Below, piece by piece: positions 3,792 to 56,388 of a DNA stretch of 64,000 bases; the first letter of the stretch is position 1, and each line of letters opens with the position of its first letter. A model generated the notes under the pieces. The model saw only the letters and a program-made list of their open reading frames with translations, was not told where the DNA came from and did no database searches. The translations under genes and the position numbers were made by a program. The DNA is from a virus (Duplodnaviria; Caudoviricetes): IMG/VR virus record IMGVR_UViG_3300006805_000023. One strand, given 5' to 3'.

Positions 3792-3820
3792 AACCTAACA
3801 CAGACCTTGACGTTTGTCAA
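3792..3820 (-). promoter_or_regulatory. sigma70-type early promoter, leaderless
   Basis: TTGACA-N17-TAGGTT, ATG 3786 after 5 nt. Confidence 0.9.
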
Positions 3821-4449
3821 GTGGACCAGAAGCGAGGCTTGAAGGCATCGGGTAGCTCGACTTGGTACTGGTCGGTCGGAGGGTTGACCTTGACGGCCCT
3901 GGAGACGATATCCGGGTTGTACACCACCATGACGAGAGCGCCACCGTGGTAGCGGAACACTCCGTAGTCCACGCCCTGATCGACCAGCAGCTGGCGCAGG
4001 GCTGTGGTCCGGCTTGGGATCAGAGCGTCGCTGTTGATGCAGAGGTTGACCAAAGAATCGGCATCAATGGTGCTTTCACCAGGGCTGCGGCTGCGACCAT
4101 AGCGCTCGATGTCAGCCAGGAGCTTCTTGCGCAAGGCAACCTTGACGTAGGACTTCACGAAGTTGGCTGCGGTCTGAGAGTCGATCTCGACGTGGCTGAT
4201 GTCCATACCCTTGCGGACCGTCACCGCGTACACGCTGCCACCACCCTTTGAGTATTTCCGGGCCGTCGGGTAGTCGTTGGTCAGATAGAGGCCAGGACCG
4301 AACTCCCAGGAGCCGGTCTGACCGGGCTTGATGCCGCTCCTGATATCCAGGTTGCGCCCTCCGTGATACCACGTGACGGTGTCGTTGGTCGGGAGCGGCG
4401 TAGCGTCCTGCTCGTGGAGCTGAAGTAGGAGAGAAGTGATCGAGATCAT
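3817..4449 (-). CDS. ADP-ribosyltransferase-fold protein (PARP/DUF3990-like) with type-B N-terminal tag
   Basis: WYHG ... FGPGLYLTND...ARKY pattern; N-terminus MISITSLLLQLHE. Confidence 0.65.
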   Translation of the reverse strand: MISITSLLLQLHEQDATPLPTNDTVTWYHGGRNLDIRSGIKPGQTGSWEFGPGLYLTNDYPTARKYSKGGGSVYAVTVRKGMDISHVEIDSQTAANFVKSYVKVALRKKLLADIERYGRSRSPGESTIDADSLVNLCINSDALIPSRTTALRQLLVDQGVDYGVFRYHGGALVMVVYNPDIVSRAVKVNPPTDQYQVELPDAFKPRFWST

Positions 4450-4850
4450 GCGAGAGCGAGCTGACGTGATTTGCCTTTGGCCCGGAAGCGCTCAGGCTGG
4501 TCGCTGAGCCCATGCGAATAAGAGAAGGCAGCGCCACCGGCGACCTTGTCATGGTAAGTGACGTGCTTGAGGTCATCAAAACCACGCTTTGCCAGAAGGG
4601 CGTCCACGACTGCTTGATCCAGGGGAGTCGGCTGCTCCCACCAAAATACTGTGTTGGAGCCCTCTGGATAGCGCCACCGTTTACCACGCAGCAGGTTGAG
4701 GCTTTTATGCGACGGCACCGCCTCGTCCCCAGCTTCTGGGTCGTAGGTGGCACGCTGAGTCTGGACCTGTCCATCCTGGAGAACCGTCCCTATGACCAGG
4801 GCAAGAGCAGCTTCACAAAGGTACAACAGGGAGGAGGTAACGGAAAACAT
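4446..4850 (-). CDS. hypothetical protein with type-B tag
   Basis: MFSVTSSLLYLCE; late motif upstream. Confidence 0.7.
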   Translation of the reverse strand: MFSVTSSLLYLCEAALALVIGTVLQDGQVQTQRATYDPEAGDEAVPSHKSLNLLRGKRWRYPEGSNTVFWWEQPTPLDQAVVDALLAKRGFDDLKHVTYHDKVAGGAAFSYSHGLSDQPERFRAKGKSRQLALA

Positions 4851-4854
4851 CCGC

Positions 4855-4863
4855 GATACCTAG
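4855..4863 (-). promoter_or_regulatory. putative late promoter
   Basis: CTAGGTATC, 4 nt before ATG 4850. Confidence 0.7.
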
Positions 4864-5180
4864 AGCTTGGCAATAATCGGCTTAGCCGCTTCGTTGAAAT
4901 CGTGAAAGGTCTCCTGCGCCCCGCCAGCCTGCAAAGCTTGTCTGAGAGGGGCCTCCCAGTCAAGACAAAGCTCAGACCACTCTGGGAGCAGATCAAGCTG
5001 CCTGTTCTCCGTATAACGGTGTTTCCACGGGTTGAGAATAGCTGGCGCGTCGTCCTCACCCCAGCCCTCAATAAAGTGGCCGACAGCTTGTCTGGCGATC
5101 GGGTCCATTTGCTCAGCAGTGATGGCGGTGCCATGCTCCTCCTTAAGGAGGCTCTCAACCAGTTTGTCAGCGTTTTTCAT
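4860..5180 (-). CDS. hypothetical protein with type-A tag
   Basis: start at 5180 (MKNADKLVESLLKE), ATGA-coupled to upstream stop. Confidence 0.75.
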   Translation of the reverse strand: MKNADKLVESLLKEEHGTAITAEQMDPIARQAVGHFIEGWGEDDAPAILNPWKHRYTENRQLDLLPEWSELCLDWEAPLRQALQAGGAQETFHDFNEAAKPIIAKL

Positions 5181-5854: not shown

Positions 5855-5874
5855 CGGGATAAGAACTCTTGGTT

Positions 5875-6246: not shown

Positions 6247-6416
6247 GGTGGGGAGAGGATAATGCCGAACTTAACCAGTACGATGTCCAGGAGCATCAGA
6301 GCGCAGCCCAGCACGAACTTCCAAGCGTAGCGCCTGGATGGGTAAACAGTCTCGGCGACGGACAAGCCGAAAAAGGCGAAGAACAGCGCTATGGCGACTG
6401 GGAAGGGGAGGGTCAT
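6243..6416 (-). CDS. small two-TM membrane protein (57 aa)
   Basis: hand-translated MTLPFPVAIALFFAFFGLS...FVLGCALMLLDIVLVKFGIILSPP; ATGA overlaps at both ends. Confidence 0.7.
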   Translation of the reverse strand: MTLPFPVAIALFFAFFGLSVAETVYPSRRYAWKFVLGCALMLLDIVLVKFGIILSPP

Positions 6417-6913: not shown

Positions 6914-6933
6914 AGGTGGTGTTGATGAAGAAA

Positions 6934-11004: not shown

Positions 11005-11340
11005 ATGAAACCCGCCGACGCCCTCGTTGAGTCCCTCCTGGAGAACCCAGACATCAAGATCGAGGTCAGTAAGACCTTCGCAACCGAATACACGGTAGTC
11101 GCCAAGTATCGCGGCAGGCAGGCCGCCAAGGCCTCCGTCAAACTCATCGGGAAGAATCGGCTGCGCATGGCCGGGATCACGGTCGATGAGGAGTTCCGGC
11201 GCAAGGGGATCGCGACGGCCATCTACCGCCACCTTGAAAAGATGACTGATCGCACCTTCCAGCGCGGCCTGAAGCCGACCCGCGATGGCTCGGCCTTTTG
11301 GAACTCTCCGAAACGCTCCTGGGGAGATCCAGTCAAGTAG
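11005..11340 (+). CDS. GNAT acetyltransferase with type-A tag
   Basis: ITVDEEFRRKGIATAIY acetyl-CoA motif A; MKPADALVESLLE. Confidence 0.8.
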   Translation: MKPADALVESLLENPDIKIEVSKTFATEYTVVAKYRGRQAAKASVKLIGKNRLRMAGITVDEEFRRKGIATAIYRHLEKMTDRTFQRGLKPTRDGSAFWNSPKRSWGDPVK

Positions 11341-14470: not shown

Positions 14471-15265
14471 ATGACGTCCGTTACCAACTCCCTTCTTTTC
14501 CTGACCGAGTCCTATTCACGGGAGAACGTAATGCTGTTCCAGTACCTGCAGAAAAAGCCACTCACCGTCGGCGACCTCTACTACGAGCTATCCGAGTGGC
14601 ACGGCTGGGACGACGCCCTGCAGGAGATCGGCCACAGTGCCGAGGAGCTGAGTGCTCTGGCTGCTGAAGACAACATGGACACCGTCTGGGAGATCTGTCA
14701 CAAGCTGGAGTCCTGGTTCGATCAGAACGAGTCGGCCAAAAACGACGCCGCGATGTTCCTGATGCGCGATTACCCGGACAACGCGCCGACCTGGGCTCAT
14801 CTGAGCCTCAACGGGAGCCGTCTGCTGCCATCTCAGACCTGGCTGGTGCACTGGACTGACGATGCTCTTGACATTTCCGCCGGAGGCTTCACGCACGGCA
14901 CCGACGACCCCACACGCCTGGGCCTCACACTCTACCGCAACAAGGAGTCCAAGAAGTTCGGTGGCTACAACTTCGCGTTCCGGGCCAACAGCCGCTACGC
15001 CTCCAACCCCGACCGGCGCTACGGCAGCGAGGTCGTGATCTTCCAGTCCAGCGGAGTTGACTGCTTCCACGGCGGCGATGACGAGGATCAGGTGATCTTC
15101 TGGGGTCAGTCGATCACCAGCAGGCCGATCGCCATCTCGCACCACACCGACGACGACAAGTGGGAGGTCCTCGGCAAGAAAGGCCGGGTCGTCGCCTTCG
15201 ACACCGTCGAGGAGTGCTTCAAGTGGGTGATCCAGCACTCCAGCAGCTACCGCAGTTCCTTATGA
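14471..15265 (+). CDS. possible ADP-ribosyltransferase-fold protein with type-B tag
   Basis: MTSVTNSLLFLTES; WLVHWT, GYNFAF, DDEDQVIFW resemble ART strand motifs. Confidence 0.5.
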   Translation: MTSVTNSLLFLTESYSRENVMLFQYLQKKPLTVGDLYYELSEWHGWDDALQEIGHSAEELSALAAEDNMDTVWEICHKLESWFDQNESAKNDAAMFLMRDYPDNAPTWAHLSLNGSRLLPSQTWLVHWTDDALDISAGGFTHGTDDPTRLGLTLYRNKESKKFGGYNFAFRANSRYASNPDRRYGSEVVIFQSSGVDCFHGGDDEDQVIFWGQSITSRPIAISHHTDDDKWEVLGKKGRVVAFDTVEECFKWVIQHSSSYRSSL

Positions 15266-15768
15266 CTTCAGTCACTCAAAACCTCAAGGCTCTCCTGGAG
15301 TCCCCCAACACGCTGGCGATCACGCCGGAGCAGCTCGCCAAGTTTTGGCTGCAGATGGACAAGAAGTACTTCGTCGAGGAGGACGGAATTTGGCATCGCC
15401 CTTACGGGACGTGCACCAACATCAACTCATCCCCGACTCTGATGCTCAGGAAAGCCGGTCATTCTGTCCGCGTGTTCGGAGGTGATGAGGACGTTCTGGC
15501 GAACTCAGGCTTCGCCAGAGACTTCGACCTCCTTGGCGGTCATGACTGGGCTGTCGTGGACGACCGTTGGATCATTGACCAGTGGGCCGTCGAGTACCTT
15601 GGAGTCCCCAAGGCGATTCACGATCTCCGTGACCCGGAAACCGTCAAGCTTTACCCGCCTCGTGACACCTGGGTGGAACTCGGTGCCGACGGCGAGCTTG
15701 AAGACTGGTTCAAACAAGCCGCTGATGACTGGGCCGAGTTCATGCAGCAGGAGTGCCAGCAAGCCTGA
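15262..15768 (+). CDS. papain/transglutaminase-like Cys-His-Asp protein with type-B tag
   Basis: MTSVTQNLKALLES; GTCTN, GHDWAVV, WIIDQW. Confidence 0.55.
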   Translation: MTSVTQNLKALLESPNTLAITPEQLAKFWLQMDKKYFVEEDGIWHRPYGTCTNINSSPTLMLRKAGHSVRVFGGDEDVLANSGFARDFDLLGGHDWAVVDDRWIIDQWAVEYLGVPKAIHDLRDPETVKLYPPRDTWVELGADGELEDWFKQAADDWAEFMQQECQQA

Positions 15769-16252
15769 CCATGCGTTTTGTCGTTGGGTCGAACGCGGCC
15801 ATTTCGACTCTGACCTTTGAGCGCCCAGCCAAGATCTGAACAGACACTCTCGTGTGTCCCGAGATGAGGATCGCGTTGCCAGCTTCGTTGACGACTACAA
15901 GCGGTAGCTCGGCCCATCTCTCTTCAGGGTCTCCGGTGGCAATTCCGGAGTTGTTGATGTAAGCCAGGAGTCCAGGAACAGCAACATCGTGCTGACTGTA
16001 ACAAAGGCTCCTTGGGTCCACTTCGGTCTGAATGAAGGCCTTCTTATCCCTCGCCGTCACGCCGTAAATCTGCAGGCTCCCAGCAGACCTTAACCCGACA
16101 TCCTTAAGCTCGACGAAGTCCCATTGGCTCCAGCTGTTCTTGTGGCGTGGCAGCCTCTCCAGGTTGGCTAAAGCCTGGGTGCGCTCGCTCTGAGTGAGTC
16201 CGAACGCTCCGGCTGTGATAGCCTCCAGTAGGGAACCGGTAACGTTGACCAT
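15740..16252 (-). CDS. ParB/Sulfiredoxin-like domain protein with type-B tag
   Basis: LPLVVV...ILISGHTR; MVNVTGSLLEA. Confidence 0.6.
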   Translation of the reverse strand: MVNVTGSLLEAITAGAFGLTQSERTQALANLERLPRHKNSWSQWDFVELKDVGLRSAGSLQIYGVTARDKKAFIQTEVDPRSLCYSQHDVAVPGLLAYINNSGIATGDPEERWAELPLVVVNEAGNAILISGHTRVSVQILAGRSKVRVEMAAFDPTTKRMVRLAGTPAA

Positions 16253-16630
16253 CTAGTAGGCTGATGGATGCGGGTTGGTGTCGTCCTCGACCCGCTTGTA
16301 CTCGCCTCCAATGTCAACGATGTAGCGAGGGTAGTTGAAGCCAGCGGTGTCGGCCAGCCAGCACAGGCCGGTGTTGAAGTCGTGCAGGATGCACTGCCTG
16401 AGTTCAGGTGGGAGATCGACGTGCTCCAGGTCCTCGCCATCCACGTCAAAGACGGGCAGGGTGTCCAGGTAAGTCTTCTCCTCTTGGTCCGGAGTCCTCC
16501 CCCGAGCTACCGTGGGTAGCACACTCGGCTTGCGCTCGGCAGGCCCATGGGTGAAACGGCGTGGGATGTCGGTGTTCTCGACCAGTTTGTGAGTGGTCAG
16601 AAGGACTGAGGTGACTGATTGGACTTGCAT
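16253..16630 (-). CDS. hypothetical protein with type-B tag
   Basis: MQVQSVTSVLLTTHKLVE. Confidence 0.7.
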   Translation of the reverse strand: MQVQSVTSVLLTTHKLVENTDIPRRFTHGPAERKPSVLPTVARGRTPDQEEKTYLDTLPVFDVDGEDLEHVDLPPELRQCILHDFNTGLCWLADTAGFNYPRYIVDIGGEYKRVEDDTNPHPSAY

Positions 16631-18926: not shown

Positions 18927-19598
18927 ATGGTCTCAATCACACGCACGCTCCTGGAGGTTATCAAAGACACCTCTGGGCTGTCTGTGGCTGGCCTAAAACT
19001 GGCTGGGGTAGAGCGCATAAAGAACTGCGCCATTAGGAGTTTGACTACCAACGAGATCATAGAAGGAACGTGGCATGGCGATTGTTACGACGCGGCGTTA
19101 GAGCAGGGCTGGTTTCCAGGGGACATGCCACAGTCTGATGACTTACCGCGCTATGTGGAAGCCGGTTTCACGACTAACTCTGGGAGGTTTCTAGGGAGAA
19201 AAGAGGCTTTGGCGTTGGCAAAATCGTCCAGGCAATACTCAGGTCCTAAGAAGCACGCCCCCGACTACGAGTTGGAAGCAACAGAGTTTACTGAGGCCGT
19301 CTCCCCTTACTTCCTGAAGCGATTGAACCAGCTGATCAGACGCGGTGACGCCCAGCCACTCAGAGAGGCTGGGCGGTCTGCTACCTGCGTGACGGCGTCG
19401 GCCCTGATCCACGGGGAGCCAGCTGTCTTTACGTTTTCACTCGACCACCGTGATCACATCGCGGTTGCTGTGACAGCACAGCGTGATGGATTGTCCGGTA
19501 AGAGCCTGGGTACCTTCGTGGAGATCGACGATGCTCTGAAGGTGGCCGTGGCGACCTGTAAGGATCTCGACCGGATGTGGTCAAAGAGCGTCTCCTAG
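18927..19598 (+). CDS. hypothetical protein with type-B tag
   Basis: MVSITRTLLE; GFTTNSGRFLGRKEALALA motif shared with 63344..63847. Confidence 0.7.
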   Translation: MVSITRTLLEVIKDTSGLSVAGLKLAGVERIKNCAIRSLTTNEIIEGTWHGDCYDAALEQGWFPGDMPQSDDLPRYVEAGFTTNSGRFLGRKEALALAKSSRQYSGPKKHAPDYELEATEFTEAVSPYFLKRLNQLIRRGDAQPLREAGRSATCVTASALIHGEPAVFTFSLDHRDHIAVAVTAQRDGLSGKSLGTFVEIDDALKVAVATCKDLDRMWSKSVS

Positions 19599-19882
19599 TC
19601 AGCAAGCATCACGTTGCTCTCGCTCTCCTCGCCCTCTTTCCCACTAGCATATTTCACGCGCAGCGGGTTAGTACCGACCACCTTCATGGCGTGGCGTGGG
19701 TGCCACAGGTTCGGGCTCTTGTACTTGAGCGAGTCGCCGACACGAAAAGAGCCCGATCGCGGGATCACCTTAGGCCTGCGACCCTGCTGCATGTCCTCGA
19801 TCTCGCTGAAGTCCTTGCCAAAGATCTTGCCGTCGTTTTCCAACAAGGCCTTCGCGAGTGTGTCCGGAGTGTGTTTCATCAT
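19595..19882 (-). CDS. hypothetical SH3/KOW-like protein with type-A tag
   Basis: MKHTPDTLAKALLE; FRVGDSLKY. Confidence 0.65.
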   Translation of the reverse strand: MMKHTPDTLAKALLENDGKIFGKDFSEIEDMQQGRRPKVIPRSGSFRVGDSLKYKSPNLWHPRHAMKVVGTNPLRVKYASGKEGEESESNVMLAD

Positions 19883-19902: not shown

Positions 19903-20244
19903 CTACGCCTTAGGGAGGATGAAGGTGTACCACCTGTTGACGGCCTTGCCGGTCTGCTGGAGTTGCGCGATGATCTGTCTCGCGTCCTCCCGAGAATCGC
20001 CGTCGTCCAGCTCATTCTCGCTGTAGTCGGCGTAAAGCTGATCGTCAAGCATCCGGAACAGCTCATCAAACGAGCCAGGAACCTTGTTCCAGTGATACTG
20101 AGACCCGGCGAACTCGTCCAGCTCGTCCGGAGTCGGGTTTTCAGGGTTGGCTGGAAGCTGGGCCACCTGCAGGGCAGCGAGCGGCGAGGAGGCGGGCTCT
20201 TCGCCTGCCAGGAGGGTTTCAACAAGTTTATCGGCGGTTCTCAT
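19903..20244 (-). CDS. acidic hypothetical protein with type-A tag
   Basis: MRTADKLVETLLAGEE; ATGA-coupled. Confidence 0.75.
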   Translation of the reverse strand: MRTADKLVETLLAGEEPASSPLAALQVAQLPANPENPTPDELDEFAGSQYHWNKVPGSFDELFRMLDDQLYADYSENELDDGDSREDARQIIAQLQQTGKAVNRWYTFILPKA

Positions 20245-20471
20245 GAGTCTTCTTCGTTCGCGGGGTTCTCTTCATCAGGGACGACGCGCACGCCGATGAC
20301 CTCGACGCCGTCGGTCTTCTCCGCCCAGGACTGCAGAGCCGCATGGTTCTTGAACTTCTTTTTCCACGGCGTATTCTTCTCGCCTTTGGTGCCATGAGCT
20401 TCGACGCTCTGGTCGTCGCATTCAAGGAGGGAGTTGGCAAAGGTCTCAACGGCTTTTTCGGAAAGTTTCAT
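20241..20471 (-). CDS. hypothetical protein with type-A-like tag
   Basis: MKLSEKAVETFANSLLE. Confidence 0.7.
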   Translation of the reverse strand: MKLSEKAVETFANSLLECDDQSVEAHGTKGEKNTPWKKKFKNHAALQSWAEKTDGVEVIGVRVVPDEENPANEEDS

Positions 20472-21820: not shown

Positions 21821-22492
21821 TCATGAGATCAGGGTGTGGGCGTCTTCGGCGGTGAGAGGAATGTCTTTGAGCGACACGCCGGACTCAGTCATCAGGGTGA
21901 GGCCGCGCTTGCTCCACATTGTCAGAATGGCTACGGCAACACGCAGACTCTGGAGCTGGTTGAGCTCAAAGGAGAACTTGAAACCCCTCAAATGGAAGCT
22001 CGACATGACCATCGAGCAACGTGATTTGGAGTCAGCAGTGAGCGTTACGCCCTGGATGGTACTCCACCGGAAGAACATCTCCCAGACCAGACTGTCGATC
22101 TCACGCCTGGAGTCCTCTTGGACGTTGCCGAAGCGAGTCTGGACCCGGCTGAAGACGTTCTGGCGGACGCTGCCCTGGTACTCTTCCTCCTGGAGCCCGC
22201 CGTAGCTGTGGTCGAAGCACAACAGATAGTACTCTGTGCAGCCGTTGCGACCACTGCCTTGATGCTGGTAGGAGAGGATCACGCTGGCGCTCAGGATACC
22301 CCGCGCCATCTCAACCGACGAGATCACGACGCGGATCGCGACCGTCTTGACGATGATAGCCCACTGGCCGCGTGCCGTAGCTTTGGCCTCGAATGTGGTG
22401 TTGAGGCCATCAACGATCCCTTCGGCGGCGAGCAGCTCTGGGAAGTCATAGGCGGAGGCGATTTCGCGGATGAATTGGGTGAGGTCTTTCAT
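21821..22492 (-). CDS. hypothetical protein
   Basis: start likely MKDLTQF at 22492. Confidence 0.65.
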   Translation of the reverse strand: MKDLTQFIREIASAYDFPELLAAEGIVDGLNTTFEAKATARGQWAIIVKTVAIRVVISSVEMARGILSASVILSYQHQGSGRNGCTEYYLLCFDHSYGGLQEEEYQGSVRQNVFSRVQTRFGNVQEDSRREIDSLVWEMFFRWSTIQGVTLTADSKSRCSMVMSSFHLRGFKFSFELNQLQSLRVAVAILTMWSKRGLTLMTESGVSLKDIPLTAEDAHTLIS

Positions 22493-25515: not shown

Positions 25516-25851
25516 ATGAGAACAGCCGATCAACTCGTCGAATCCCTTTTGAACGAAAACAGCCAAGGACTAAACCACGGCGACATCGTGCAGCTGCAGG
25601 GCTACCTGCGCCGTCCCGGCTACTGGAAGGTGGACTGCGAAGACGCCGTTGGTGCTTCACCGCAGCGCCCGTGGGTCGAGAATCTGGACACCAACACCGG
25701 CTTCTACATCGACCCGTCTGACCTCGACTGCGCGGTCGTGATCCTCTCAGCCGATCAGTTTGACACTCGCGCACTGGACTCCTCAGCAGATGTGGAGGAA
25801 GCCCTGGAAGATGGCAACAACTTCGACGATGACGACCTCGGCGCTGAATAA
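25516..25851 (+). CDS. acidic hypothetical protein with type-A tag
   Basis: MRTADQLVESLLNE. Confidence 0.75.
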   Translation: MRTADQLVESLLNENSQGLNHGDIVQLQGYLRRPGYWKVDCEDAVGASPQRPWVENLDTNTGFYIDPSDLDCAVVILSADQFDTRALDSSADVEEALEDGNNFDDDDLGAE

Positions 25852-25854: not shown

Positions 25855-26169
25855 ATGAAGCCCGGACCACTCAACACCCTCAAGCAGGCCATCGGCGACG
25901 CTTGGGCCTTTGCGCAGAGCCGCGACCGCGCCAGCAAGGACCGGACCGACGACAGGGCTTACATCGAGTACCGCAGCCTCTACCAGAGGAAGCTCAAGTT
26001 CGTCAAAAGCCGGGTTGAGCTCAATGGCCTGGATCAAGTCAAGGCAGCTCTTGGACCGGAATACGCGGCACGCCTTGATGCTCTTTTGCTGGCTGGACAA
26101 TATGGCACGCCGAATCTGGAGCCTAAGACTCCAGATCAGGTGGTCGAGTCCCTGCTCAGCCAGGGCTAA
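25855..26169 (+). CDS. hypothetical protein with C-terminal type-A tag
   Basis: ends NLEPKTPDQVVESLLSQG. Confidence 0.7.
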   Translation: MKPGPLNTLKQAIGDAWAFAQSRDRASKDRTDDRAYIEYRSLYQRKLKFVKSRVELNGLDQVKAALGPEYAARLDALLLAGQYGTPNLEPKTPDQVVESLLSQG

Positions 26170-26429
26170 AGGTGGTCGCGCTCCAGGACCTCGTAGTAAT
26201 CGAGGCGCTCGTCAATGTGCTGGCTCGCAATATTACGGGCCACAGCCGGGTCGGTCGTGTGTTCCTGCTCCACCTTCTGGCCCTTAGCCAGCTCGACCTC
26301 AATCTTCGCGACCGAGACCTTGTGCTTGGTGGCAAGCTGCCGAGCGGTGAACCCAGGCTTGAGGTGGCAGGCCTCGTCCGATTCACGGAGCTTGAGGACT
26401 CTTCGAAGCAAGGGAGTGACGGCGGTCAT
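26166..26429 (-). CDS. DUF5661-like phage protein with type-B tag
   Basis: ELAKGQKVEQEHT...ARNIASQHIDERLDYY; MTAVTPLLRRVLKLRE. Confidence 0.7.
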   Translation of the reverse strand: MTAVTPLLRRVLKLRESDEACHLKPGFTARQLATKHKVSVAKIEVELAKGQKVEQEHTTDPAVARNIASQHIDERLDYYEVLERDHL

Positions 26430-26432: not shown

Positions 26433-26441
26433 AATACCTAG
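26433..26441 (-). promoter_or_regulatory. putative late promoter
   Basis: CTAGGTATT, 3 nt before ATG 26429. Confidence 0.7.
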
Positions 26442-26812
26442 GGGTCTGGAAACGTGAACCGCACCTCGATGTCGGGGTTTCCTTCTTGACGCGCTCGCAC
26501 CAGACGGTGGTTACCGTCGATCAGCTCGTACGAGCCACTACGCCAGAGCGCGATTTCAACAGGAGGTAGCGCCCGTGTCCTTCCCAAGTCCTTGAGACGA
26601 TCCTTGGAGATCGCGGTAGCTTTGACCCCCGAAAGCTCAGAAAGTGGCACCCTAACCGGCACCGTCCAGTAATCACCAACACGGTAGCGCTGCGTCGCCG
26701 GTACCGAGTGCTTCGGCGATGGTGAGTCGTCGTCTCTTGGCGTTGCCGAGTACTTGGCGAACAAGCTGGTAGCCTGCGCGGCCTCAGCCAGGGACTTGGT
26801 AACGCTGATCAT
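26438..26812 (-). CDS. ParB/Sulfiredoxin-like domain protein with type-B tag
   Basis: LPPVEI...YELIDGNHRL; MISVTKSLAE. Confidence 0.8.
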   Translation of the reverse strand: MISVTKSLAEAAQATSLFAKYSATPRDDDSPSPKHSVPATQRYRVGDYWTVPVRVPLSELSGVKATAISKDRLKDLGRTRALPPVEIALWRSGSYELIDGNHRLVRARQEGNPDIEVRFTFPDP

Positions 26813-30656: not shown

Positions 30657-30941
30657 CTACTGGGAGACCTGCGCTTGCAACTCATCACCGACCCGGCTGA
30701 TGATGTACTTCTTGCCACATTCCAGGGCAACGTCATCACCAAAGTAGGCACCGAGAGTGTCTTCGATCCGCTGAACAGCCTCGTCGTGGATGTTCGAGAC
30801 AGCCCCATCAGAGCCGTAAGCCTCTTTGGACTCCCCGTCGATCACGGCCAGACCTGAATAGACACCCCGCCTGCACCTCAGCTGGGACAGGTCGAGCGTA
30901 AGGGTCTGCGGAGATTCGGTGAGGATGTGAATGAGGCTCAT
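30657..30941 (-). CDS. hypothetical protein with short tag-like N-terminus
   Basis: MSLIHILTES; late motif upstream. Confidence 0.7.
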   Translation of the reverse strand: MSLIHILTESPQTLTLDLSQLRCRRGVYSGLAVIDGESKEAYGSDGAVSNIHDEAVQRIEDTLGAYFGDDVALECGKKYIISRVGDELQAQVSQ

Positions 30942-36614: not shown

Positions 36615-36913
36615 AAAGTGATCTTCCAGCGTGATGGTGTGCTGGCTGTGCAGAAAGGGATCTCGACGCGCCTCCTAGGTGAGGACGTGCTGACGAAGTT
36701 CATGTGGAAGATCAGACCAGTCGGACCGTCCATCGGCTGGACCTTAACGAGTTCACTGGCGAGCAGGTCTGGGTGAATCCGTCGGATCAGCGCGATCGGG
36801 AACTCCAGGAGCTTTGGCTTCGGGGTGGACAGCCGGACGACTGCCGGAGCCAGGACGGCACCGAGCAGCGTAGTAAGGAAACCGCGTCTTCTCATCCCTG
36901 GAAGAAAGCTCAA
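36611..36913 (-). CDS. twin-arginine-like leader fused to gp23-type major capsid protein fragment
   Basis: MRRRGFLTTLLGAVLAP + IALIRRIHPDLLASELVKVQPMDGPTGLIF. Confidence 0.75.
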   Translation of the reverse strand: MSFLPGMRRRGFLTTLLGAVLAPAVVRLSTPKPKLLEFPIALIRRIHPDLLASELVKVQPMDGPTGLIFHMNFVSTSSPRRRVEIPFCTASTPSRWKITL

Positions 36914-37245
36914 CCGAAGTTGTCTTCCAGGTAGGTTGAAAGACCAGCCCTAGCCTCGATGGCGTCCTCGTCCTGGGAGGCGATCGAGGCCGCTCCGTCG
37001 GCCCCGTAGCCCTTGCGCCGTGCGGTCCTGGAGGCAAAGCCCCACATCACGTCGCGCAGGTCCTGGGGAGTTGGGGCTAGGGCCAGCTTGCGGATGTCTC
37101 TTTGTGGCCACTGGCCCTCCTTGAAGTACTCGATAGCAGCCTTGCGCATCTTCTCGAAATCGGACTTCGTGTCCGTGGGCTGAGGAGCCGGGTCTTCTCC
37201 AGCCAGGAGGGTTTCAACGAGGGCGTCGGGTGTCTGTGGTCTCAT
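36910..37245 (-). CDS. hypothetical protein with type-A tag
   Basis: MRPQTPDALVETLLAGED. Confidence 0.75.
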   Translation of the reverse strand: MRPQTPDALVETLLAGEDPAPQPTDTKSDFEKMRKAAIEYFKEGQWPQRDIRKLALAPTPQDLRDVMWGFASRTARRKGYGADGAASIASQDEDAIEARAGLSTYLEDNFG

Positions 37246-38197: not shown

Positions 38198-38536
38198 GTG
38201 ATCTCAGTCAAAAACGCTCTCTCATCCGCTCTGTTGGAAGCTTCCGGAAAACCCACACGGGACGAGGTCAAGGACTTCATCCTTAAGCAGACCGGCGTGT
38301 CCCTGGAGGCGTGCGACCAGCTTAAGCCATCAAGGAGGTACTACAACTTCAAGCTGAAGGACAGGGCTTCAGAGAGCGGAGAGCTTGATGTGATCCTCAG
38401 GTTTCTGCCGAGGCAGACTCTGATCAAGAAGGTTGAGCCCAACGTTACGGACGACCGCCCAGTCTTTGGTAGCGCTCGTCCTCCCTGGAACCAGAGCCAT
38501 AAAGCCAATCTGCTTCTTGGTCTCGTCCTCCCATAG
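38198..38536 (+). CDS. hypothetical protein with type-B tag
   Basis: MISVKNALSSALLE. Confidence 0.65.
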   Translation: MISVKNALSSALLEASGKPTRDEVKDFILKQTGVSLEACDQLKPSRRYYNFKLKDRASESGELDVILRFLPRQTLIKKVEPNVTDDRPVFGSARPPWNQSHKANLLLGLVLP

Positions 38537-38809
38537 GTGAAGAGCCGTCAGGCGCTCCGGGTCGTTCACCGAGATCGAGAATCCGCCCTGGCTCCACGCG
38601 ATGTTGCGTCCGGCCTCGTCTTTTTGAGGAGCCCGTTCACCCAGGAACGACCGGAACCGAGCCATCAAGGCGTCGTATACAGGATTCCGCAAGGGGCCTT
38701 TAGCAGTGTTCGGATGAACGCTATTCGCCCGAACGGTGTTCGCCTGCGTGTCTCCCCCTCCCCCTATTTCGGTTAAGGTCCGGCTTAGTGCCTGGGTTAC
38801 GCTGGTCAT
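38369..38809 (-). CDS. hypothetical protein with type-B tag
   Basis: MTSVTQALSRTLTE. Confidence 0.65.
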   Translation of the reverse strand: MTSVTQALSRTLTEIGGGGDTQANTVRANSVHPNTAKGPLRNPVYDALMARFRSFLGERAPQKDEAGRNIAWSQGGFSISVNDPERLTALHLWEDETKKQIGFMALVPGRTSATKDWAVVRNVGLNLLDQSLPRQKPEDHIKLSAL

Positions 38810-49615: not shown

Positions 49616-50278
49616 ATGAAAGTAAACGACCTCGTGGAGTCATTGTTGAACGAAAGCGCTGCCTGGACCTTCGACTACGGCGGGGAGTTTCCCCAAGCCT
49701 GGCGTGTCAATGTTGAGGGAGGTCTCGACGTCGTGTACACTGACTCAGGTGGACGTGACATCTCAGCGGTTGCTGACACCTGGCCCAAGGGAACCACCTT
49801 CGAGTCCTTGCCGGATCACGACCCTAGATCCAGAGCAGTGATCCGAGCAGATTCGGGCGAGGGTGCTGAGTACGACCTTGTCAACAGAGTCTCCGAGCTG
49901 ATAGATGGGGAAAACGCTCAGGAGGCGTGGGATCTAGTGATGAAAAACGGCAAAAGGGTGCGCGTCGGGAAGCCACCTACGCCCAGTAAAAAGGCCGCCA
50001 AAGATGCATTCCTCCAGGGAACCTGGGAGGCTATGATGGATGTGTGGGAAAACGCGCCTACCACGCCAGAAGGAAAGGCTGAGGCCATGGCCAGGGGGAA
50101 CAAAATGTACCAAAAAGCCAATAATCTCATGGTTGGTGACGAGAGGACTAGACTACAGAATGTGGCAACGTCCCTGAGAAGCGTCGGTGGTGGCTACGGG
50201 CCGAGCGATGACATGCGGAAGGCTCTGGAAGCACGAGCAAGAGGCGAGGCATCAAGACATCCGTGGGATGTGTATTAG
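49616..50278 (+). CDS. hypothetical protein with type-A tag
   Basis: MKVNDLVESLLNES. Confidence 0.75.
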   Translation: MKVNDLVESLLNESAAWTFDYGGEFPQAWRVNVEGGLDVVYTDSGGRDISAVADTWPKGTTFESLPDHDPRSRAVIRADSGEGAEYDLVNRVSELIDGENAQEAWDLVMKNGKRVRVGKPPTPSKKAAKDAFLQGTWEAMMDVWENAPTTPEGKAEAMARGNKMYQKANNLMVGDERTRLQNVATSLRSVGGGYGPSDDMRKALEARARGEASRHPWDVY

Positions 50279-50969: not shown

Positions 50970-51236
50970 ATGCTCCAGCTCATCGAGACCCTCACCGAAG
51001 CCAAACCGAAGTGCCATTGCTCAGATGAGGGCATTCGCAAGATCATCAAAAGCGTGGGTGGCAACGTGGCCGAAATGCAGGAGACGCAGGCCCAGTTCGT
51101 CGTCACGGTCGAGCTTAGCAAAAACAACTTCGAGAAGCTCGAAAAGGCCATCAACGATAAGTTTCCGGACCACCTTCGCACTATCACGAAGTGTGGTCCG
51201 GCTCATGCCTCAGTGGCGATCTGGAAGAAGGACTAG
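50970..51236 (+). CDS. hypothetical protein with type-A-like tag
   Basis: MLQLIETLTEA. Confidence 0.65.
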   Translation: MLQLIETLTEAKPKCHCSDEGIRKIIKSVGGNVAEMQETQAQFVVTVELSKNNFEKLEKAINDKFPDHLRTITKCGPAHASVAIWKKD

Positions 51237-51590: not shown

Positions 51591-51594
51591 GTCC

Positions 51595-53259
51595 TCAGCG
51601 CTTGTGGTAAATGAAGCAAAGCTTCTCAGAGCCCCAGACTTTCCGGAGCAGATTCGTCTCCGCGTAGGCCGCCTCAGTGGTTGACATCTTTTGAGCCCTG
51701 CCCCAGACGGTGCGCTTGTGAACGACCCAGCCGAGCTGATCCACGTAGTAGTAGTCGGGAGCGACCGTGTGACTGAACCGGAAGTTGCTGGCCCGGTAGA
51801 GGCCGCCTGAGTGGCCCATCGTGGTGTCCGCGTAGGTCACAACGTCCTGACCGCTAAGCTTGAGACAACGCGACAAAAACCACGATCCAAGGTTCTTGAC
51901 CTGGTAGGCCGGGTCAAGCCAGAACCGCGTCAGCTCCACGGCGTCCTTGTATTTGAGGGTCTGCTCGTTGCGCTGGAACGGCCCAAACGAACACGCCCCG
52001 ATGACGGTTTCACCCGAGAACAGCCCAAGATGTTGTTTGCCACGGCTTGACCCCAGGTAATGACGCGAGTAAACGACCTGCGACTCCCGGAACGTGATCT
52101 CGCGAATCGCCAGAGCCTTGAAGTCAACTTCGTGCAACGCTGGCTTGTCAGCCAGGCCTAGCATCTCTTTGATCCGGTGCAGCACGCGCCCCTCGGTGTG
52201 GAACTCAAGCTCCCAGATCACTGCCAGCCTGACACCGGGGCAATAGCGCTCCACGTAGGTCGCCTTAGCCTTGTCACGCGGACCGGCGGCTGGCTTGCCA
52301 TGCCAGTACTCCCCGTGGCACTCGATCAAAAGGTTGTGGTCTGGAACCCAGACGTCGAAGTTCCAGGGTCCGATCGGATGCTCGGACGCCCACTTGATGC
52401 CAAGCGAATCCAGGATAGCAAACACTGCCTTGTTGAGAGATGACACCACTGGTTGGTTAGCGCGGGCCACAGCCATCTTGGCCTTGACAACCTCGCTCTG
52501 CATGGCGTCCCTGACGCTCTGCTTAAACTCTCCAGTAGCGCCAAGCTCGCGTGACTTCGCACAAAAACGCTCCACCCAGACAGGGTCGTCCCAGTAGGAC
52601 TGCAGCCGGTGCTGCAGCTCAGGATCGGCCATCGCTTCCAGGTGCCTGCGCCGAACCTCCGGGTTGTCCCAGTTGGCCTTCACAATGCCTGTCAGGCGCT
52701 CCCGGTACTCTGGGTTGGCCCAGCACTGCTGCGACATTGTGGACATAGCAGCCGCGTAGTCCGGGTCCTGCCAGCGCACCAGGGTGGCGGTGCGCAGCCG
52801 CTCGCGCAGGCTGATCGACCGCATCGCTAGCAAATGCCGGTCGCGCACCTCTGGGTTCGAGTACGACTCCTTGAGAGTCATAGCCATGTTGGCGCGGTAT
52901 ACCGGGTCTGCAGCACGCCTGCGGATCATGGTCAGCCAGCCCTCATCCTGTGACCGCTTTCTGATGGCGGCCCGCATCCGACCAGAAGTTTCTGGATCAG
53001 TCCAGGCCGCCTTGCTCTGCTGCGACAGGCGCTGGCGCTCTTCGGAAGTGGCTGGCACGCCCTTGTTATGTGGGACCACCCGTCCTTCAGCCTGTGCCTC
53101 CTTGAAACCGGCCTGCTGTTTCTCCCGATAGTCGGGTGACTTTATGACGCACTTAAAACAACGGGTCTCGCCCTTGCGCTTGCGGCGGGACACGGTCATG
53201 CGGTTCACGATCTCTATCGTTCCGCACGCCGAACATGTCACTGTGTAAACCTTAGCCAC
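51595..53259 (-). CDS. Zn-ribbon + helical repeats + DUF559/Vsr-like nuclease + Mom-like GNAT fusion
   Basis: CSAC/CFKC; W.(D/N)P.YR repeats; FDVW..IECHGEYWHG; VELTRFW..GSWFLSRCLK..TYAD..GHSGGLYRASNF. Confidence 0.75.
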   Translation of the reverse strand: MAKVYTVTCSACGTIEIVNRMTVSRRKRKGETRCFKCVIKSPDYREKQQAGFKEAQAEGRVVPHNKGVPATSEERQRLSQQSKAAWTDPETSGRMRAAIRKRSQDEGWLTMIRRRAADPVYRANMAMTLKESYSNPEVRDRHLLAMRSISLRERLRTATLVRWQDPDYAAAMSTMSQQCWANPEYRERLTGIVKANWDNPEVRRRHLEAMADPELQHRLQSYWDDPVWVERFCAKSRELGATGEFKQSVRDAMQSEVVKAKMAVARANQPVVSSLNKAVFAILDSLGIKWASEHPIGPWNFDVWVPDHNLLIECHGEYWHGKPAAGPRDKAKATYVERYCPGVRLAVIWELEFHTEGRVLHRIKEMLGLADKPALHEVDFKALAIREITFRESQVVYSRHYLGSSRGKQHLGLFSGETVIGACSFGPFQRNEQTLKYKDAVELTRFWLDPAYQVKNLGSWFLSRCLKLSGQDVVTYADTTMGHSGGLYRASNFRFSHTVAPDYYYVDQLGWVVHKRTVWGRAQKMSTTEAAYAETNLLRKVWGSEKLCFIYHKR

Positions 53260-53264
53260 TGTTC

Positions 53265-53293
53265 ACCCTACACCCGAGGAGCCGCTCGGTCAA
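53265..53293 (-). promoter_or_regulatory. sigma70-type promoter, leaderless
   Basis: TTGACC-N17-TAGGGT, GTG 53259 after 5 nt. Confidence 0.75.
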
Positions 53294-53298
53294 CCCAG

Positions 53299-55791
53299 TT
53301 ACTTCTGTTTCTTGGCTTTCCTGATGTCGCGAGCCATCTCCTCGACTCCCTCGTCGTCATCCTGGCGCTTGCGCTTGCGTGGATTCTCTTCCTCGTCCTC
53401 TTCCTCCGGCATTGGCTCAGAACCAATTGACGAAAGGTACATGTAAGCTGGGTCGCAGCGGCAGATGATGCGGTTGTTGCCACCTTCATTACGGGAAGCG
53501 ATCGGGATGAGGTGCAGAGTGCCCTCTTTCTTGTACCTACGCAATGCGTAACAATAGTCACAAATCCCAACCCACTCGAAGCTCGCCGCCATGTGTTTCA
53601 TACCTGGACGGTTGGATGACTGCTCCTCACGGTTAGAACGGGCTGCCGTCCAGAGTGGGAACTTCCATTTCTGAGCTACTGAGCGCAGGTCGGTCGCGAT
53701 GATGACCTTCTCCAAGTAGTCCTTCTCCTTCTTCTGGTCGGACCCCACAAGGTTCAGGTAGTCGATGACTACCATGCCGAACACGATGCCGTGCTCGCGC
53801 TGCATCATTTCGAGGTAGTCATCCAGCACCTTGGGTGTGAACTTGTAGGCGTCAAAGTACTTGATGACGATGTTCTTGCCTGGCTGATAGATGTTCTTGA
53901 CGCGGATCTTCCAGTAGTCGATGAACCCCTCTGGGTTGCGCATCATGTCGTGCTTGGTCCGCATCGTGGTGCGCACTCCAAACCGCAGGAGCTGAAGATG
54001 CTCCGACAGCTCCAGGGTGATGTAAAGAGTGTTGACCCCCACGCCGCGCTTCACGGCGTTAAAGGCGAAGTTGAGCATCGTCCCACTGTTGTGTGTGACC
54101 GTAAAGTCGCCGAGGAGGTAGCGATGGTTGCCATCAGTCCTCCAGCCGCACCAGTCGCCCTCCCCAACTGGCTCCACTTTGATCGGTGTCCGGTCTGTCA
54201 CCTTCACGGAGTCGGTGCCGCGCTTGCGTGCCAGCTTGGTTGGGATCTCGCTGACCTTGCCCTGGATGAGGGTCCGGAACGCGGTGTGATAGGTCTTGGT
54301 GCCGTCTGGGTGAACACAGGACGACCTGAACTCGACAACATGTGCTCTGAACCCAAGGCTGCGGGCCAGCCAACAGGCGTCGTCGCAGAGAGTCCGGTTG
54401 GTGTTGTTGAACGTGAACCCATTCACGCGCAGGAAATGACCATCGCTGTCGATCATCCCAGCCAGCACCTGGAGCCTGACCTCGCGACTGTTAAACTTGT
54501 AGAGGTCGGGCACGTGCTTCAGGCTGCCAGCCCCACCCAAACCAACCGAGCGTAGAGCTTGTTTCAGCGGGTTAAAACCGGGGGAGTCAGTAACCAAGTT
54601 GACGTTTGAACATTTCGCTCTCACCCTAGCACCGGTCTTATCCACTCTGAACTTCTGCTGCTCACTAATTCTGAGCCCCCACTGAGAAGCCAGGCCGCTT
54701 AGATAATCCTTTACCTCGTGATCGTCATCTGCACTACAAATCCCAGTGTTCCGTATCACTCCGTCGCCAAGCCAAAGCCCAATGTAGTAGGGGCAGACCA
54801 GAGTGGCCTGAGACGGAAACTCGACGCCAGCCTTGAAGCCCTGCCAGGTCCGCTTGAACCACGGCTTCTGTTTGGCGTATTCCTCAGCAGTCATCTCCAG
54901 GGTCTGTTCAGTGTGATACCTGGCTTGCTGCGGGACCTCTGTATCAGGGCGTTTCAAGACGAGCTTGTGCTCAGCAGTGACTGTGTAGGAGTCGCCGTTG
55001 GCCTGAGTCACCTTAAACATCTGTCCTCGCCCGGTGCCAAGCTCCAACACCCGACGAGGAGTTGAGTCATCCCCCATCAGCAAGTCACCGAGCTTCACTT
55101 CTTTGGCGAGCTTGATACTCCCGTCGAACATCATAACCGGCTGATTTGGTTCCGAGCACTTGAAGCCCTTAGGCGGTGCCATGAGCATGCAAAGGTCGCC
55201 CTGTCTTGGTCCCCCGCCCAGCTCGGCGTCAAAGTGGACCAACCCGGTTGGGATCGCGGGTCGCCACTTAGGGTCGGTCTCGTTCCTCACCATGGTCTCT
55301 GTAGCGCCGATCACCAGACTTCCCGGATCGGTCTTCTTGGTGCCAGCCATCAGAGCCACCCGGAAGCGGTCAACCAGTGCTGCGTCGATCTTACCGGCCT
55401 GCAGGTCATCCAGGGTCTCGACCACCGCTGACTGAAGGGCCTTTCCTTGCAAGAACTGGGCCAGTCGTGCTGCCACGTAGGCCGGTGAAGCACTAGGGGG
55501 CTTACAGATCTCCTCGACGTGGTCCAGAAGCGTCTGGCGCTGTCTCTTTTCGCGCTCATTGCCAGCGGCGAAGGCCACCAGAATGTGGTCACGCAGGACG
55601 GACCGTGACGGGATCGCCCGATAGGTCCTGTAGTAGTCCTGGGCCATCCCCCACAACATCTGGGACGAAGCGTCCAGCAGATACTCCGGTTTGAGCGAGG
55701 ACTCGCATCCTAGGAACAGTCCCTGATCGGCCAGCACGGTGCGGACTACCTCAAGCTCAAAATCAGGATCTTCGGTCAGTAGGGTTGCCAT
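53299..55791 (-). CDS. dnaB: replicative DnaB/gp41-like helicase with intein
   Basis: PTG...DAELGGG, Walker A APPKGFK|S, YITLE, VVIDY, WTAARSNR. Confidence 0.9.
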   Translation of the reverse strand: MATLLTEDPDFELEVVRTVLADQGLFLGCESSLKPEYLLDASSQMLWGMAQDYYRTYRAIPSRSVLRDHILVAFAAGNEREKRQRQTLLDHVEEICKPPSASPAYVAARLAQFLQGKALQSAVVETLDDLQAGKIDAALVDRFRVALMAGTKKTDPGSLVIGATETMVRNETDPKWRPAIPTGLVHFDAELGGGPRQGDLCMLMAPPKGFKCSEPNQPVMMFDGSIKLAKEVKLGDLLMGDDSTPRRVLELGTGRGQMFKVTQANGDSYTVTAEHKLVLKRPDTEVPQQARYHTEQTLEMTAEEYAKQKPWFKRTWQGFKAGVEFPSQATLVCPYYIGLWLGDGVIRNTGICSADDDHEVKDYLSGLASQWGLRISEQQKFRVDKTGARVRAKCSNVNLVTDSPGFNPLKQALRSVGLGGAGSLKHVPDLYKFNSREVRLQVLAGMIDSDGHFLRVNGFTFNNTNRTLCDDACWLARSLGFRAHVVEFRSSCVHPDGTKTYHTAFRTLIQGKVSEIPTKLARKRGTDSVKVTDRTPIKVEPVGEGDWCGWRTDGNHRYLLGDFTVTHNSGTMLNFAFNAVKRGVGVNTLYITLELSEHLQLLRFGVRTTMRTKHDMMRNPEGFIDYWKIRVKNIYQPGKNIVIKYFDAYKFTPKVLDDYLEMMQREHGIVFGMVVIDYLNLVGSDQKKEKDYLEKVIIATDLRSVAQKWKFPLWTAARSNREEQSSNRPGMKHMAASFEWVGICDYCYALRRYKKEGTLHLIPIASRNEGGNNRIICRCDPAYMYLSSIGSEPMPEEEDEEENPRKRKRQDDDEGVEEMARDIRKAKKQK
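54088..55158 (-). mobile_element. intein with LAGLIDADG homing endonuclease (357 aa)
   Basis: N-terminal Cys (CSEPNQ), C-terminal THN followed by Ser; IGLWLGDG and LAGMIDSDG motifs. Confidence 0.92.
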
Positions 55792-55848
55792 TCGGGAGTG
55801 TTACGGGGTGTGGGGGAAGGAGACTGTTAGAAAGCCCGCCCAGAATGC

Positions 55849-55857
55849 GTAGCTATC
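55849..55857 (+). promoter_or_regulatory. putative late promoter
   Basis: GTAGCTATC, 3 nt before ATG 55861. Confidence 0.7.
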
Positions 55858-55860
55858 AGC

Positions 55861-56115
55861 ATGGCAAAGAGCACTCTTACCCCTACCGACCAGACCGCTG
55901 ATTCAACTCCAGGGCAGTCTGGTGCGCCTACACGCAAGTATCGTCTGGTAAACCGGATGGGGCAGAAGGTGGTCGTCAACATCGTGGTCAACGGTGTTCA
56001 GGAGTCAATCGAGCTTGGCATCCAGGAGAAGAGCCGCCCGTACTCGACCGCAGACTTCGGGCCTCATGCTGAGACCCTCAGAAGGTCACGCCATCTGATG
56101 ATCGAGGCTTGCTAA
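55861..56115 (+). CDS. hypothetical late protein
   Basis: 84 aa. Confidence 0.7.
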   Translation: MAKSTLTPTDQTADSTPGQSGAPTRKYRLVNRMGQKVVVNIVVNGVQESIELGIQEKSRPYSTADFGPHAETLRRSRHLMIEAC

Positions 56116-56388
56116 GCCTTCAGTCCTTCGCCACGCCAGCGTTCCATGTTTGCCTGAATGAACTCCTTCAGGTTCTTCGGCTGGTACTTCGCTTTAGCCC
56201 ATTCCAGGAAGGCGAATGATTTGAGTCCAATCGACGGAACCGAGCCAACCCCCCTTCTCCTGCCAGATCTGATAACCGAGTGGGGTGAAAGAGGCGTCCC
56301 AGCGACGCGCTTCCACTTGAAGGGACGCAGTCTTGTATGGGTCGTTGGACTCGGCCAGAGCCTTGAGGCTCGAAGTAACGTTGGTCAT
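56112..56388 (-). pseudogene. type-B-tagged protein with apparent +1 frameshift at G6 run
   Basis: MTNVTSSLKALAES; removing one base at 56249-56254 gives 91 aa ending at TAG 56112. Confidence 0.55.

Follow-up and report, generated by a model that had tools for sequence, protein, structure and literature searches.

A 64,000-nucleotide (nt) stretch of DNA from the Caudoviricetes record IMGVR_UViG_3300006805_000023 of IMG/VR (hereafter the window) carries at least 23 open reading frames (ORFs), spread over 52 kb and making up ~20% of the window genes, whose products begin with one of a few kinds of short leader peptide, or tag, ending in Leu-x-Glu. These tags are probably T4-type capsid-targeting propeptides that are specific to this phage lineage and much expanded. 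Judged by its Pfam matches to Gp23, gp13 and Y16D, the phage is T4-like and not phiKZ-like. A first-pass annotation of the window had read the leaders as packaging tags that follow T4-like logic. This interpretation is supported by the enrichment of the motif at N-termini, by its link to a TAnnTAT promoter element and by a gp21-family protease in the same phage, and from these we infer packaging, cleavage and injection.

Leu-x-Glu leaders are confined to N-termini

ORFs are named here by their start coordinate, which for minus-strand ORFs is the higher one. All 22 peptides of the first-pass annotation translate exactly at their coordinates and on their strands, from ATG or, at 38198, from GTG, and each of the 22 contains at least one [LI]xE within residues 5-18. 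The two classes that had been proposed, types A and B, stand as the main ones, to which a small third class, C, must be added. In ~128,000 six-frame codons, there are six copies of the type A core LVE[ST]LL, each of them 4-9 residues past the first Met of an ORF. Type B in its strict form, M-x(1-4)-[ST][VI]T-x2-L, is found eight times in the six-frame translation, likewise always at ORF starts. Class C follows M-x-L-I/L-x-x-L-[TS]-E and comprises MSLIHILTE (30941), MLQLIETLTE (50970) and MRLLRCLLSE, the last from L008:15911-16738 (minus strand) on a second locus of this phage described below; all three members have a TAnnTAT element upstream. The peptide at 50970 had been placed in type A, but it fits the third class better, together with the previously unlisted 30941.

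Controls at the level of profiles and of simple motif counts agree. In leave-one-out tests with profile hidden Markov models (HMMs), 17 of the 22 tags score 11-29 bits, compared with less than 4 bits for the top untagged real N-terminus, and one of 2,260 shuffled N-termini gets to 11 bits with either HMM. Among 3,706 start-anchored peptides from the window and related loci, the tags are set apart by a clear score gap. In a census of the 113 called genes that made no use of the tag lists, 34 have an [LI]xE whose Glu falls at residues 8-20, versus 8.9% of internal windows (p=1.4e-10), and these positions peak at 8-10 and 13-14. N-termini show a strong excess of the motif, also relative to shuffled N-termini, as the first-pass annotation had anticipated, and a chance origin of the tags is ruled out by the shuffle, leave-one-out and internal-window controls. 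Short N-terminal leaders with a Leu-x-Glu end are confirmed as real and as confined to N-termini. The tagged cargo proteins have no Pfam or PHROGs families in common with one another.

Tagged genes follow a late-type promoter element

Inspection of the DNA upstream of gene starts reveals two kinds of element. About 20 genes lie 7-9 nt 3' of early-type TTGACA-N17-TGTGTTAnnT promoters (for example upstream of 3786, 13688, 30619, 38136, 51556 and 58085), and a second set lies 4-10 nt 3' of a (C/G)TAnnTAT element. The window genes are without Shine-Dalgarno sequences. Since both elements stop just short of the ATG, the mRNAs of both gene classes appear to be leaderless, which suggests a host that translates leaderless mRNA well. 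The early-type genes are probably leaderless, and the 4-10 nt spacing makes leaderless mRNAs probable for the TAnnTAT genes as well.

TAnnTAT is present in 18 copies on both strands of the window, 17 of them immediately 5' of gene starts. Thirteen of the 18 immediately precede tagged ORFs, 30941 counted in, and six more tagged ORFs are translationally coupled to TAnnTAT genes through an ATGA overlap or an adjacent stop and start. Tested by promoter class, tags are thus associated with the late-type element (Fisher p=5e-7). The same element stands 5' of the protease-scaffold gene, of a core-like gene and of the neck gene gp13, which makes the label late/structural reasonable. The first-pass annotation had stated that every tagged ORF except 11005 carries the late motif or is coupled to it. 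This holds for most; 49616 also lacks the motif, and 18927 and 38809 have just a TAGGTGT variant. Conversely, late-motif genes without a tag exist (gp13, 17566, 55861 and 56780), so the tag is not general to late genes. These untagged genes, gp13 for example, are not head-internal proteins.

The same phage encodes a gp21-family protease next to its capsid gene

A locus (L002) on ENA contig k141_133944 (185,594 bp) is 99.98-100% identical to window positions 53185-64000, except for a repeat-length difference near 61400-61750. Another part of this contig (L008) was reached through a paralog of the Mom-like endonuclease of the window, and it bears out the expectation that a gp21-like protease would be encoded elsewhere in the genome: a PF03420 protease gene lies there next to a Gp23-type capsid gene. 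The protease gene (L008:12899-14809, minus strand) encodes a 636-aa protease-scaffold fusion that matches Peptidase_S77 (PF03420) at 42.6 bits (cut-off 27) and the PHROG 'head maturation protease' phrog_207 at 1.7e-29. The equivalents of T4 gp21 His85 and Ser140 are invariant in its alignment with T4 gp21. Its long, scaffold-like C-terminal region is rich in Pro and Ala, and the protein contains 26 [LI]xE sites versus about 5-6 expected. A phmmer search of the fusion against PDB sequences gave no match.

The Gp23-type major capsid gene (PF07068, 1.2e-41) adjoins the protease-scaffold gene just downstream. The capsid N-terminus reads MTHVDNSK-LVE-TLVRGIK-LAE-..-IME, with LVE11, LAE21 and IME35 all ahead of the Gp23 domain. 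Its LVE-TL segment echoes the type A core LVE[ST]L. With the type A HMM, the capsid N-terminus reaches 9.5 bits, which is the upper edge of the background. Near the protease, the class C protein of L008:15911-16738 (minus strand, 275 aa, starting MRLLRCLLSE) resembles a core protein and contains several internal [LI]xE sites. A complex prediction for the protease domain with the 64-aa type B protein returned a score of 0.00, which is evidence neither way.

Tags persist while cargo turns over

Three contigs from three other samples (L004, L006 and L007) represent relatives of this phage, with 56-81% amino-acid identity in the ADP-ribosyltransferase (ART)-like protein described below. Together they add a further 18 ORFs that open with a type A or type B leader, none of them used in HMM training. 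With the tags masked, nine of the 18 have homologs in the window, and all nine of these are tagged there also; the other nine have no homolog in the window. The occurrence of tags on both common and non-common cargo indicates that the tag system is conserved while the cargo turns over.

Repertoire of tagged ORFs

In the following, bit scores come from the leave-one-out test, slashes mark predicted cleavage sites, and late motifs are those upstream of the start. Type A leaders open the ORFs at 4860-5180 (minus strand, 106 aa, MKNADKLVE/SLLKE/E, late motif CTAAATAT, 22.9 bits), the start of which overlaps the stop of the upstream gene (ATGA); at 19903-20244 (minus strand, 113 aa, MRTADKLVE/TLLAGEE, 27.7 bits), ATGA-coupled to the gene at 20241-20471; at 25516-25851 (plus strand, 111 aa, MRTADQLVE/SLLNE/N, late motif TATCTAT, 29.1 bits); and at 36910-37245 (minus strand, 111 aa, MRPQTPDALVE/TLLAGE, late motif TAATTAT, 22.4 bits). 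ORF 11005-11340 (plus strand, 111 aa, MKPADALVE/SLLE/N, 22.7 bits) encodes a GNAT acetyltransferase (Pfam PF00583, E=5e-7) and is an exception among tagged ORFs in having an early-type TTGACA promoter; its GNAT orthologs in L006 and L007 bear LVETLL leaders too. ORF 49616-50278 (plus strand, 220 aa, MKVNDLVE/SLLNE/S, 13.3 bits) has no late motif and encodes an ORFan, for which a homolog search found none beyond its own genome. Diverged type A leaders are found at 19595-19879 (minus strand, 94 aa, MKHTPDTLAKALLE/N, late motif GTAGCTAT, 3.9 bits), where the tag resembles that of 37245 (TPDxL..LL), and at 20241-20471 (minus strand, 76 aa, MKLSEKAVETFANSLLE/C, late motif CTAAATAT, 4.1 bits), whose L006 ortholog has the canonical type A leader MKEADKLVETLLEGKE.

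The following ORFs open with type B leaders. The ART-like protein at 3817-4449 (minus strand, 210 aa, MISITSLLLQLHE/Q), whose orthologs keep the tag, is ATGA-coupled to the gene at 4446-4850 (minus strand, 134 aa, MFSVTSSLLYLCE/A, 15.8 bits), where the late motif CTAGGTAT ends 5 nt 5' of the ATG. The latter has tagged orthologs in L004 and L007. Immediately past its predicted cleavage site, the 4446-4850 product has a hydrophobic, membrane-like stretch (AALALVIGTVL), and both orthologs are likewise hydrophobic past the tag. ORF 14471-15265 (plus strand, 264 aa, MTSVTNSLLFLTE/S, late motif CTAAGTAT, 18.6 bits), with a weak atlas lead to Arr/DarT-like ARTs, is ATGA-coupled to 15262-15768 (plus strand, 168 aa, MTSVTQNLKALLE/S, 19.2 bits). 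On the minus strand, 15740-16252 (170 aa, MVNVTGSLLE/A, 15.4 bits) starts right after the stop of 16253-16630 (125 aa, MQVQSVTSVLLTTHKLVE/N, late motif GTAACTAT, 8.3 bits), which carries a type B variant. ORF 18927-19598 (plus strand, 223 aa, MVSITRTLLE/V, 13.3 bits) lies behind the variant motif GTAGGTGT and has a 358-aa homolog in L006 with the N-terminus MQPVTKALGAALILLE.

Further type B leaders belong to a DUF5661 protein (Pfam PF18905, E=2e-7) at 26166-26429 (minus strand, 87 aa, MTAVTPLLRRVLKLRE/S, late motif CTAGGTAT, 11.0 bits) and to the pair formed by 26438-26812 (minus strand, 124 aa, MISVTKSLAE/A, 17.2 bits) and the gene to which it is ATGA-coupled, 26809-27510 (minus strand, 233 aa, MTPITKTLRAALSE/A, late motif CTAGTTAT, 13.7 bits); an atlas look-up of 26809-27510 returned nothing usable. 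The 64-aa product of 56194-56388 (minus strand, MTNVTSSLKALAE/S, 21.1 bits) is ATGA-coupled to the untagged late gene 56385-56780. Two convergent ORFs with good type B leaders behind late-type motifs overlap by 168 nt: 38198-38536 (plus strand, 112 aa, GTG start, variant leader (M)ISVKNALSSALLE/A, 8.4 bits), where the late motif GTAGTTAT ends 4 nt upstream, and 38369-38809 (minus strand, 146 aa, MTSVTQALSRTLTE/I, variant motif GTAGGTGT, 20.9 bits). Both may be real overlapping genes, or one of the two may be spurious in spite of its leader; of the pair, the minus-strand ORF scores lower for coding (12.4, which is low).

The class C ORFs of the window are 30657-30941 (minus strand, 94 aa, MSLIHILTE/S, late motif CTAGTTAT), which was absent from the earlier list, and 50970-51236 (plus strand, 88 aa, MLQLIE/TLTE/A, 4.4 bits as type A). 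For the latter, the motif CTAGATAT ends 10 nt upstream, which supports the internal ATG as the true start. A tentative extra candidate is the 223-aa ORFan at 21821-22492 (minus strand, MKDLTQFIRE/I), which has no late motif, an uncertain start (a TTG lies upstream at 22552) and no Pfam or PHROG match. Five of its ten leader positions (M1, K2, F7, I8 and E10) are common to the T4 leader MKTYQEFIAE.

An ART-like family among the cargo

The first-pass annotation had also put names to several cargo proteins. The labels ART-like, by fold, and GNAT and DUF5661, by Pfam, hold up; 'ParB/Srx' and 'Cys-protease-like' find no support in Pfam or PHROGs, and the remaining cargo consists of ORFans. An AF2 (AlphaFold 2) model of the 3817-4449 protein (predicted template modelling score, pTM, 0.71) places the tag in a helix of residues 4-14, followed by a linker and a globular domain from residue 24, with predicted local distance difference test (pLDDT) values below 50 for residues 1-20. 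In this model, the tag stands apart from the cargo fold. The domain adopts the fold of H-Y-E-type ADP-ribosyltransferases (exotoxin A/ExoA and diphtheria-type catalytic domains), and among PDB entries it is matched best by a cyanophage A4 pre-ejectosome chain.

A profile of this ART-like family (WHGGR...GPGLYLT...Y), for which there is no Pfam model, finds 535 cluster representatives at E<=0.001. Some members are proteins of 1,000-2,700 residues in which the domain is internal. An [LI]xE is present in the leader of 49 of the 70 distant homologs that have 12 or more residues ahead of the WHGG motif (11.5 expected, p=4e-23). Its Glu falls mostly at residues 8-11, much as in the 10-residue capsid-targeting sequence of T4; examples are MRLNEIVE, MSILHKIIE and MVQTFQQFLAE. 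Other distant homologs have no leader at all. Because the leaders differ by lineage and are missing from some members, the leader appears to be an add-on module, the end of which obeys the gp21 rule. The family thus looks like a widespread, unannotated family of head-packaged enzymes whose leader often ends in [LI]xE.

Near the protease gene, a 318-aa protein (L008:9022-9978, minus strand) starts with the type B leader MTSIRRTLLE and contains an internal type-A-like segment, ..ADILAESLLTE.., between its two halves; it could be a fusion of two tagged cargo proteins or a protein that is cut in two. Its C-terminal half has a GPGWYLT motif like that of the ART-like family and matches the profile weakly. 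An hhalign comparison with the ART alignment matched the GPGxYLT motif alone (probability 7.7%), so the ART assignment of this protein is tentative and draws on a shared weak PHROG.

Proposed mechanism and alternative explanations

In the sequence of events that we propose, TAnnTAT promoters ending 4-10 nt ahead of the ATG would drive late transcription of the tagged genes. The first 9-18 residues of each product would fold into a short amphipathic helix, which a flexible linker would connect to the cargo, and this helix would bind the scaffolding core of the assembling prohead, a core that would include the protease-scaffold fusion and [LI]xE-rich core proteins. The gp21-family serine protease would then cut after [LI]xE to free the mature cargo inside the head, with the leader leaving. 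At the next infection, the cargo (at least one ART-like enzyme, a GNAT, a DUF5661 protein and many ORFans of 50-250 residues) would be ejected with the DNA and act ahead of any phage gene expression. We infer each of these roles, namely core binding, cleavage, packaging, ejection and effector function.

Several observations weigh against this account. The phage is known from metagenome contigs only. Its tags are not homologous to the capsid-targeting sequence (CTS) of T4, as type A shares just M-[KR]-x4-hydrophobic-x-E with it and type B has no T4 counterpart. Type A conservation does not stop at the first LVE but runs on through [ST]LL, more than simple P3-P1 recognition would need. Five of the 22 tags (19879, 20471, 50970, 16630 and 38198) are weak in the leave-one-out test, and the late character of TAnnTAT is deduced from the genes it precedes. 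Two tagged ORFs, 11005 and 49616, stand behind early-type or unclassified promoters. Finally, the cargo of 4446-4850 has its membrane-like stretch just past the tag; the ejection protein gp47 of SPN3US likewise has a membrane-like hydrophobic stretch (PMC5694885).

The leaders could be prohead-protease propeptides on packaged proteins that are mostly internal head, core or DNA-condensing components, like IPII/IPIII, gp67 and gp68, and not injected effectors. Most of the cargo proteins are indeed small ORFans without an enzyme signature, the 275-aa class C protein beside the protease has the several internal [LI]xE sites of a core-like protein, and in T4 itself the functions of IPII and IPIII are still unknown, with a possible role of IPIII in head morphogenesis (PMC9026906). 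We nonetheless regard this explanation as unlikely, given at least three enzyme-like cargo proteins (the ART fold, the GNAT and the second ART-like lead), the fast turnover of cargo between related phages, which is typical of arms-race genes rather than of structural parts, and the fact that more than 20 different structural fillers would be unprecedented. Alternatively, the tag might be a shared N-terminal helix that docks on another partner common to these proteins, be it a chaperone, a membrane site, a phage compartment or a host protease (with the tag as a degron), in which case [LI]xE would be part of the helix and no cleavage site. The amphipathic helices of the AF2 model, the reach of type A conservation across LVE[ST]LL and the two tagged genes outside the late class would all suit such a helix, and tag cleavage is itself deduced. 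However, the [LI]xE signature is concentrated in the scaffold and capsid propeptide of this very phage, and the tags track the promoter element of head genes. The unrelated leaders of distant ART homologs still end in [LI]xE at residues 8-11, which fits a protease rule rather than one docking partner. The tags also have neither a signal-peptide-like hydrophobic core nor a twin-arginine motif, and on this evidence docking without cleavage seems distinctly improbable.

A further alternative places the conservation in the DNA or RNA, either as the initiation region of leaderless late mRNAs or as a junction for cassette-exchange recombination, with the peptide as a by-product. The tags do begin a few nt past a promoter-like element and hence at the mRNA 5' end, and the conserved 5' ends of the T-even internal protein (IP) locus have been proposed as shuffling sites. 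In contrast, codons at the conserved residues vary as genome usage predicts: same-codon pairs number 72 in the type B tag columns versus 71.6 expected, and 57 versus 50.0 in type A, and Ser codons switch between TCN and AGC. This variation identifies the peptide, and not a DNA or RNA element, as the conserved object. Leaderless early genes and several late genes have no tags, while downstream-coupled genes carry them without a promoter of their own. A DNA-level explanation is rejected on the codon statistics and largely refuted, and we consider it very improbable.

Returning to capsid-targeting propeptides, the leader classes may constitute a sorting code that assigns each cargo its docking site, copy number or place in the order of ejection within the prohead core, with type A copying the capsid N-terminal LVETL and B and C binding other core components. 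We hold this extension to be rather doubtful. If it is true, one T4-like phage loads at least 30 different pre-made effectors, ~1/10 of its genes; most of these would be unknown anti-defence or host-takeover proteins, and the leaders would be a sequence key to the injected proteome of a whole uncultured phage clade.

Comparison with known systems

The T4 CTS is the textbook route to pre-load injected proteins and is known for a handful of them. The T4 facts on which the first-pass annotation drew, a 10-residue CTS and the L/I-x-E rule, are correct (PMC9026906), and IPII and IPIII start with MKTYQEFIAE, their N-termini reading MKTYQEFIAE/A. The T4 protease gp21 cleaves behind L/I-x-E, and the initial 10 residues of IPIII are enough for packaging (PMC9026906, PMC3012670). 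Reviews already propose that the CTS lets T4-like phages load varied proteins that are alike in the CTS only (PMC9026906, PMC3012670). The present system resembles that of T4 (IPI, IPII, IPIII and the Alt propeptide, with gp21) in its short N-terminal leader, 9-18 residues here and 10 in T4, in the L/I-x-E end of that leader, and in small cargo proteins that are otherwise unrelated and have the leader alone in common. Each of the two phages also encodes a protease of the gp21 family, a scaffold in which these sites abound and a gp23-type capsid protein whose N-terminus can be cleaved off, and the ART-like cargo here parallels Alt in T4.

The differences from T4 are equally plain. The leaders cannot be aligned with MKTYQEFIAE beyond a loose form in type A and in the 22492 ORF, so types A and B work like the T4 CTS and yet fall outside the T-even CTS sequence family. 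There are two main leader classes and a third, compared with one in T4, and at least 23 tagged ORFs, where T4 has three IPs and Alt. Protease and scaffold form one fusion protein here, whereas gp21 and gp22 are separate genes in T4. Alt is an R-S-E type ADP-ribosyltransferase; the ART here is of the H-Y-E (diphtheria/ExoA-like) type. It is therefore likely that the mechanism is that of the T4 CTS, and that what is new lies in the leader sequences, the several classes and the much larger cargo set.

Two other systems invite comparison. In giant phages (phiKZ, 201phi2-1 and SPN3US), a diverged homolog of gp21 cleaves about 8-19 head-internal proteins after Glu, N-terminal propeptides presumably direct the proteins into the prohead, and paralogs can have identical N-termini (PMC9026906, PMC5694885). 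Unlike the leaders described here, these propeptides follow an S/A-x-E motif, mostly exceed 100 residues and do not form a family of short interchangeable leaders. DarB of P1 offers a parallel in that an N-terminal signal of <=30 residues suffices to load the anti-restriction protein or a reporter into the head (PMC9024508). In contrast to the present leaders, the P1 signal is known for one protein, which is loaded stepwise with other Dar components, and P1 has neither a family of shared leaders nor processing by an [LI]xE rule. A full-text literature search turned up no account of an environmental T4-like phage with a large leader repertoire of several classes.

In this uncultured T4-like phage, the logic of the T4 CTS thus appears to have been extended to ~1/5 of the genes of a 64-kb region. 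If this is true, the leaders would provide a sequence-only handle for listing candidate injected effectors in metagenomic phages. Such proteins would be prime anti-defence candidates because injected proteins act before phage gene expression. The tags would also offer new, orthogonal packaging tags for phage-based protein delivery.

Genomic context of the window

The window, phage DNA with a G+C content of 59% and many ORFans, lacks a close cultured relative. A megablast search against cultured phages gave no match, and protein matches there reach at most 34% identity. Exact-DNA and single-protein scans of a viral contig collection, as well as a scan of a genome contig collection, found no relatives of the window. 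Window proteins are also present on a 218,247-bp contig.

Among the untagged genes, a T4 gp13-type neck gene (62536-63312, Pfam PF26809 T4_gp13) and a T4 Y16D-type gene (63344-63847, Pfam PF26092 T4_Y16D) lie near the end of the window. A DnaB-type helicase gene split by an intein with Hint and LAGLIDADG homing-endonuclease domains occupies 53299-55791 (minus strand), and beside this region lies a Mom-like GNAT/Vsr-type endonuclease gene (51595-53259, minus strand). Its paralog at L008:10001-11317 (plus strand) stands directly beside the capsid gene. The two paralogs have 57% identity across half their length and look like mobile homing-type elements.

A 966-aa ORF at 59646-62546 (minus strand) has a low coding score, with Glu/Leu-rich antisense ORFs over the same stretch. 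The window and the ENA and JGI assemblies of this phage disagree on the length of the internal repeats of this ORF, at about 61400-61750.

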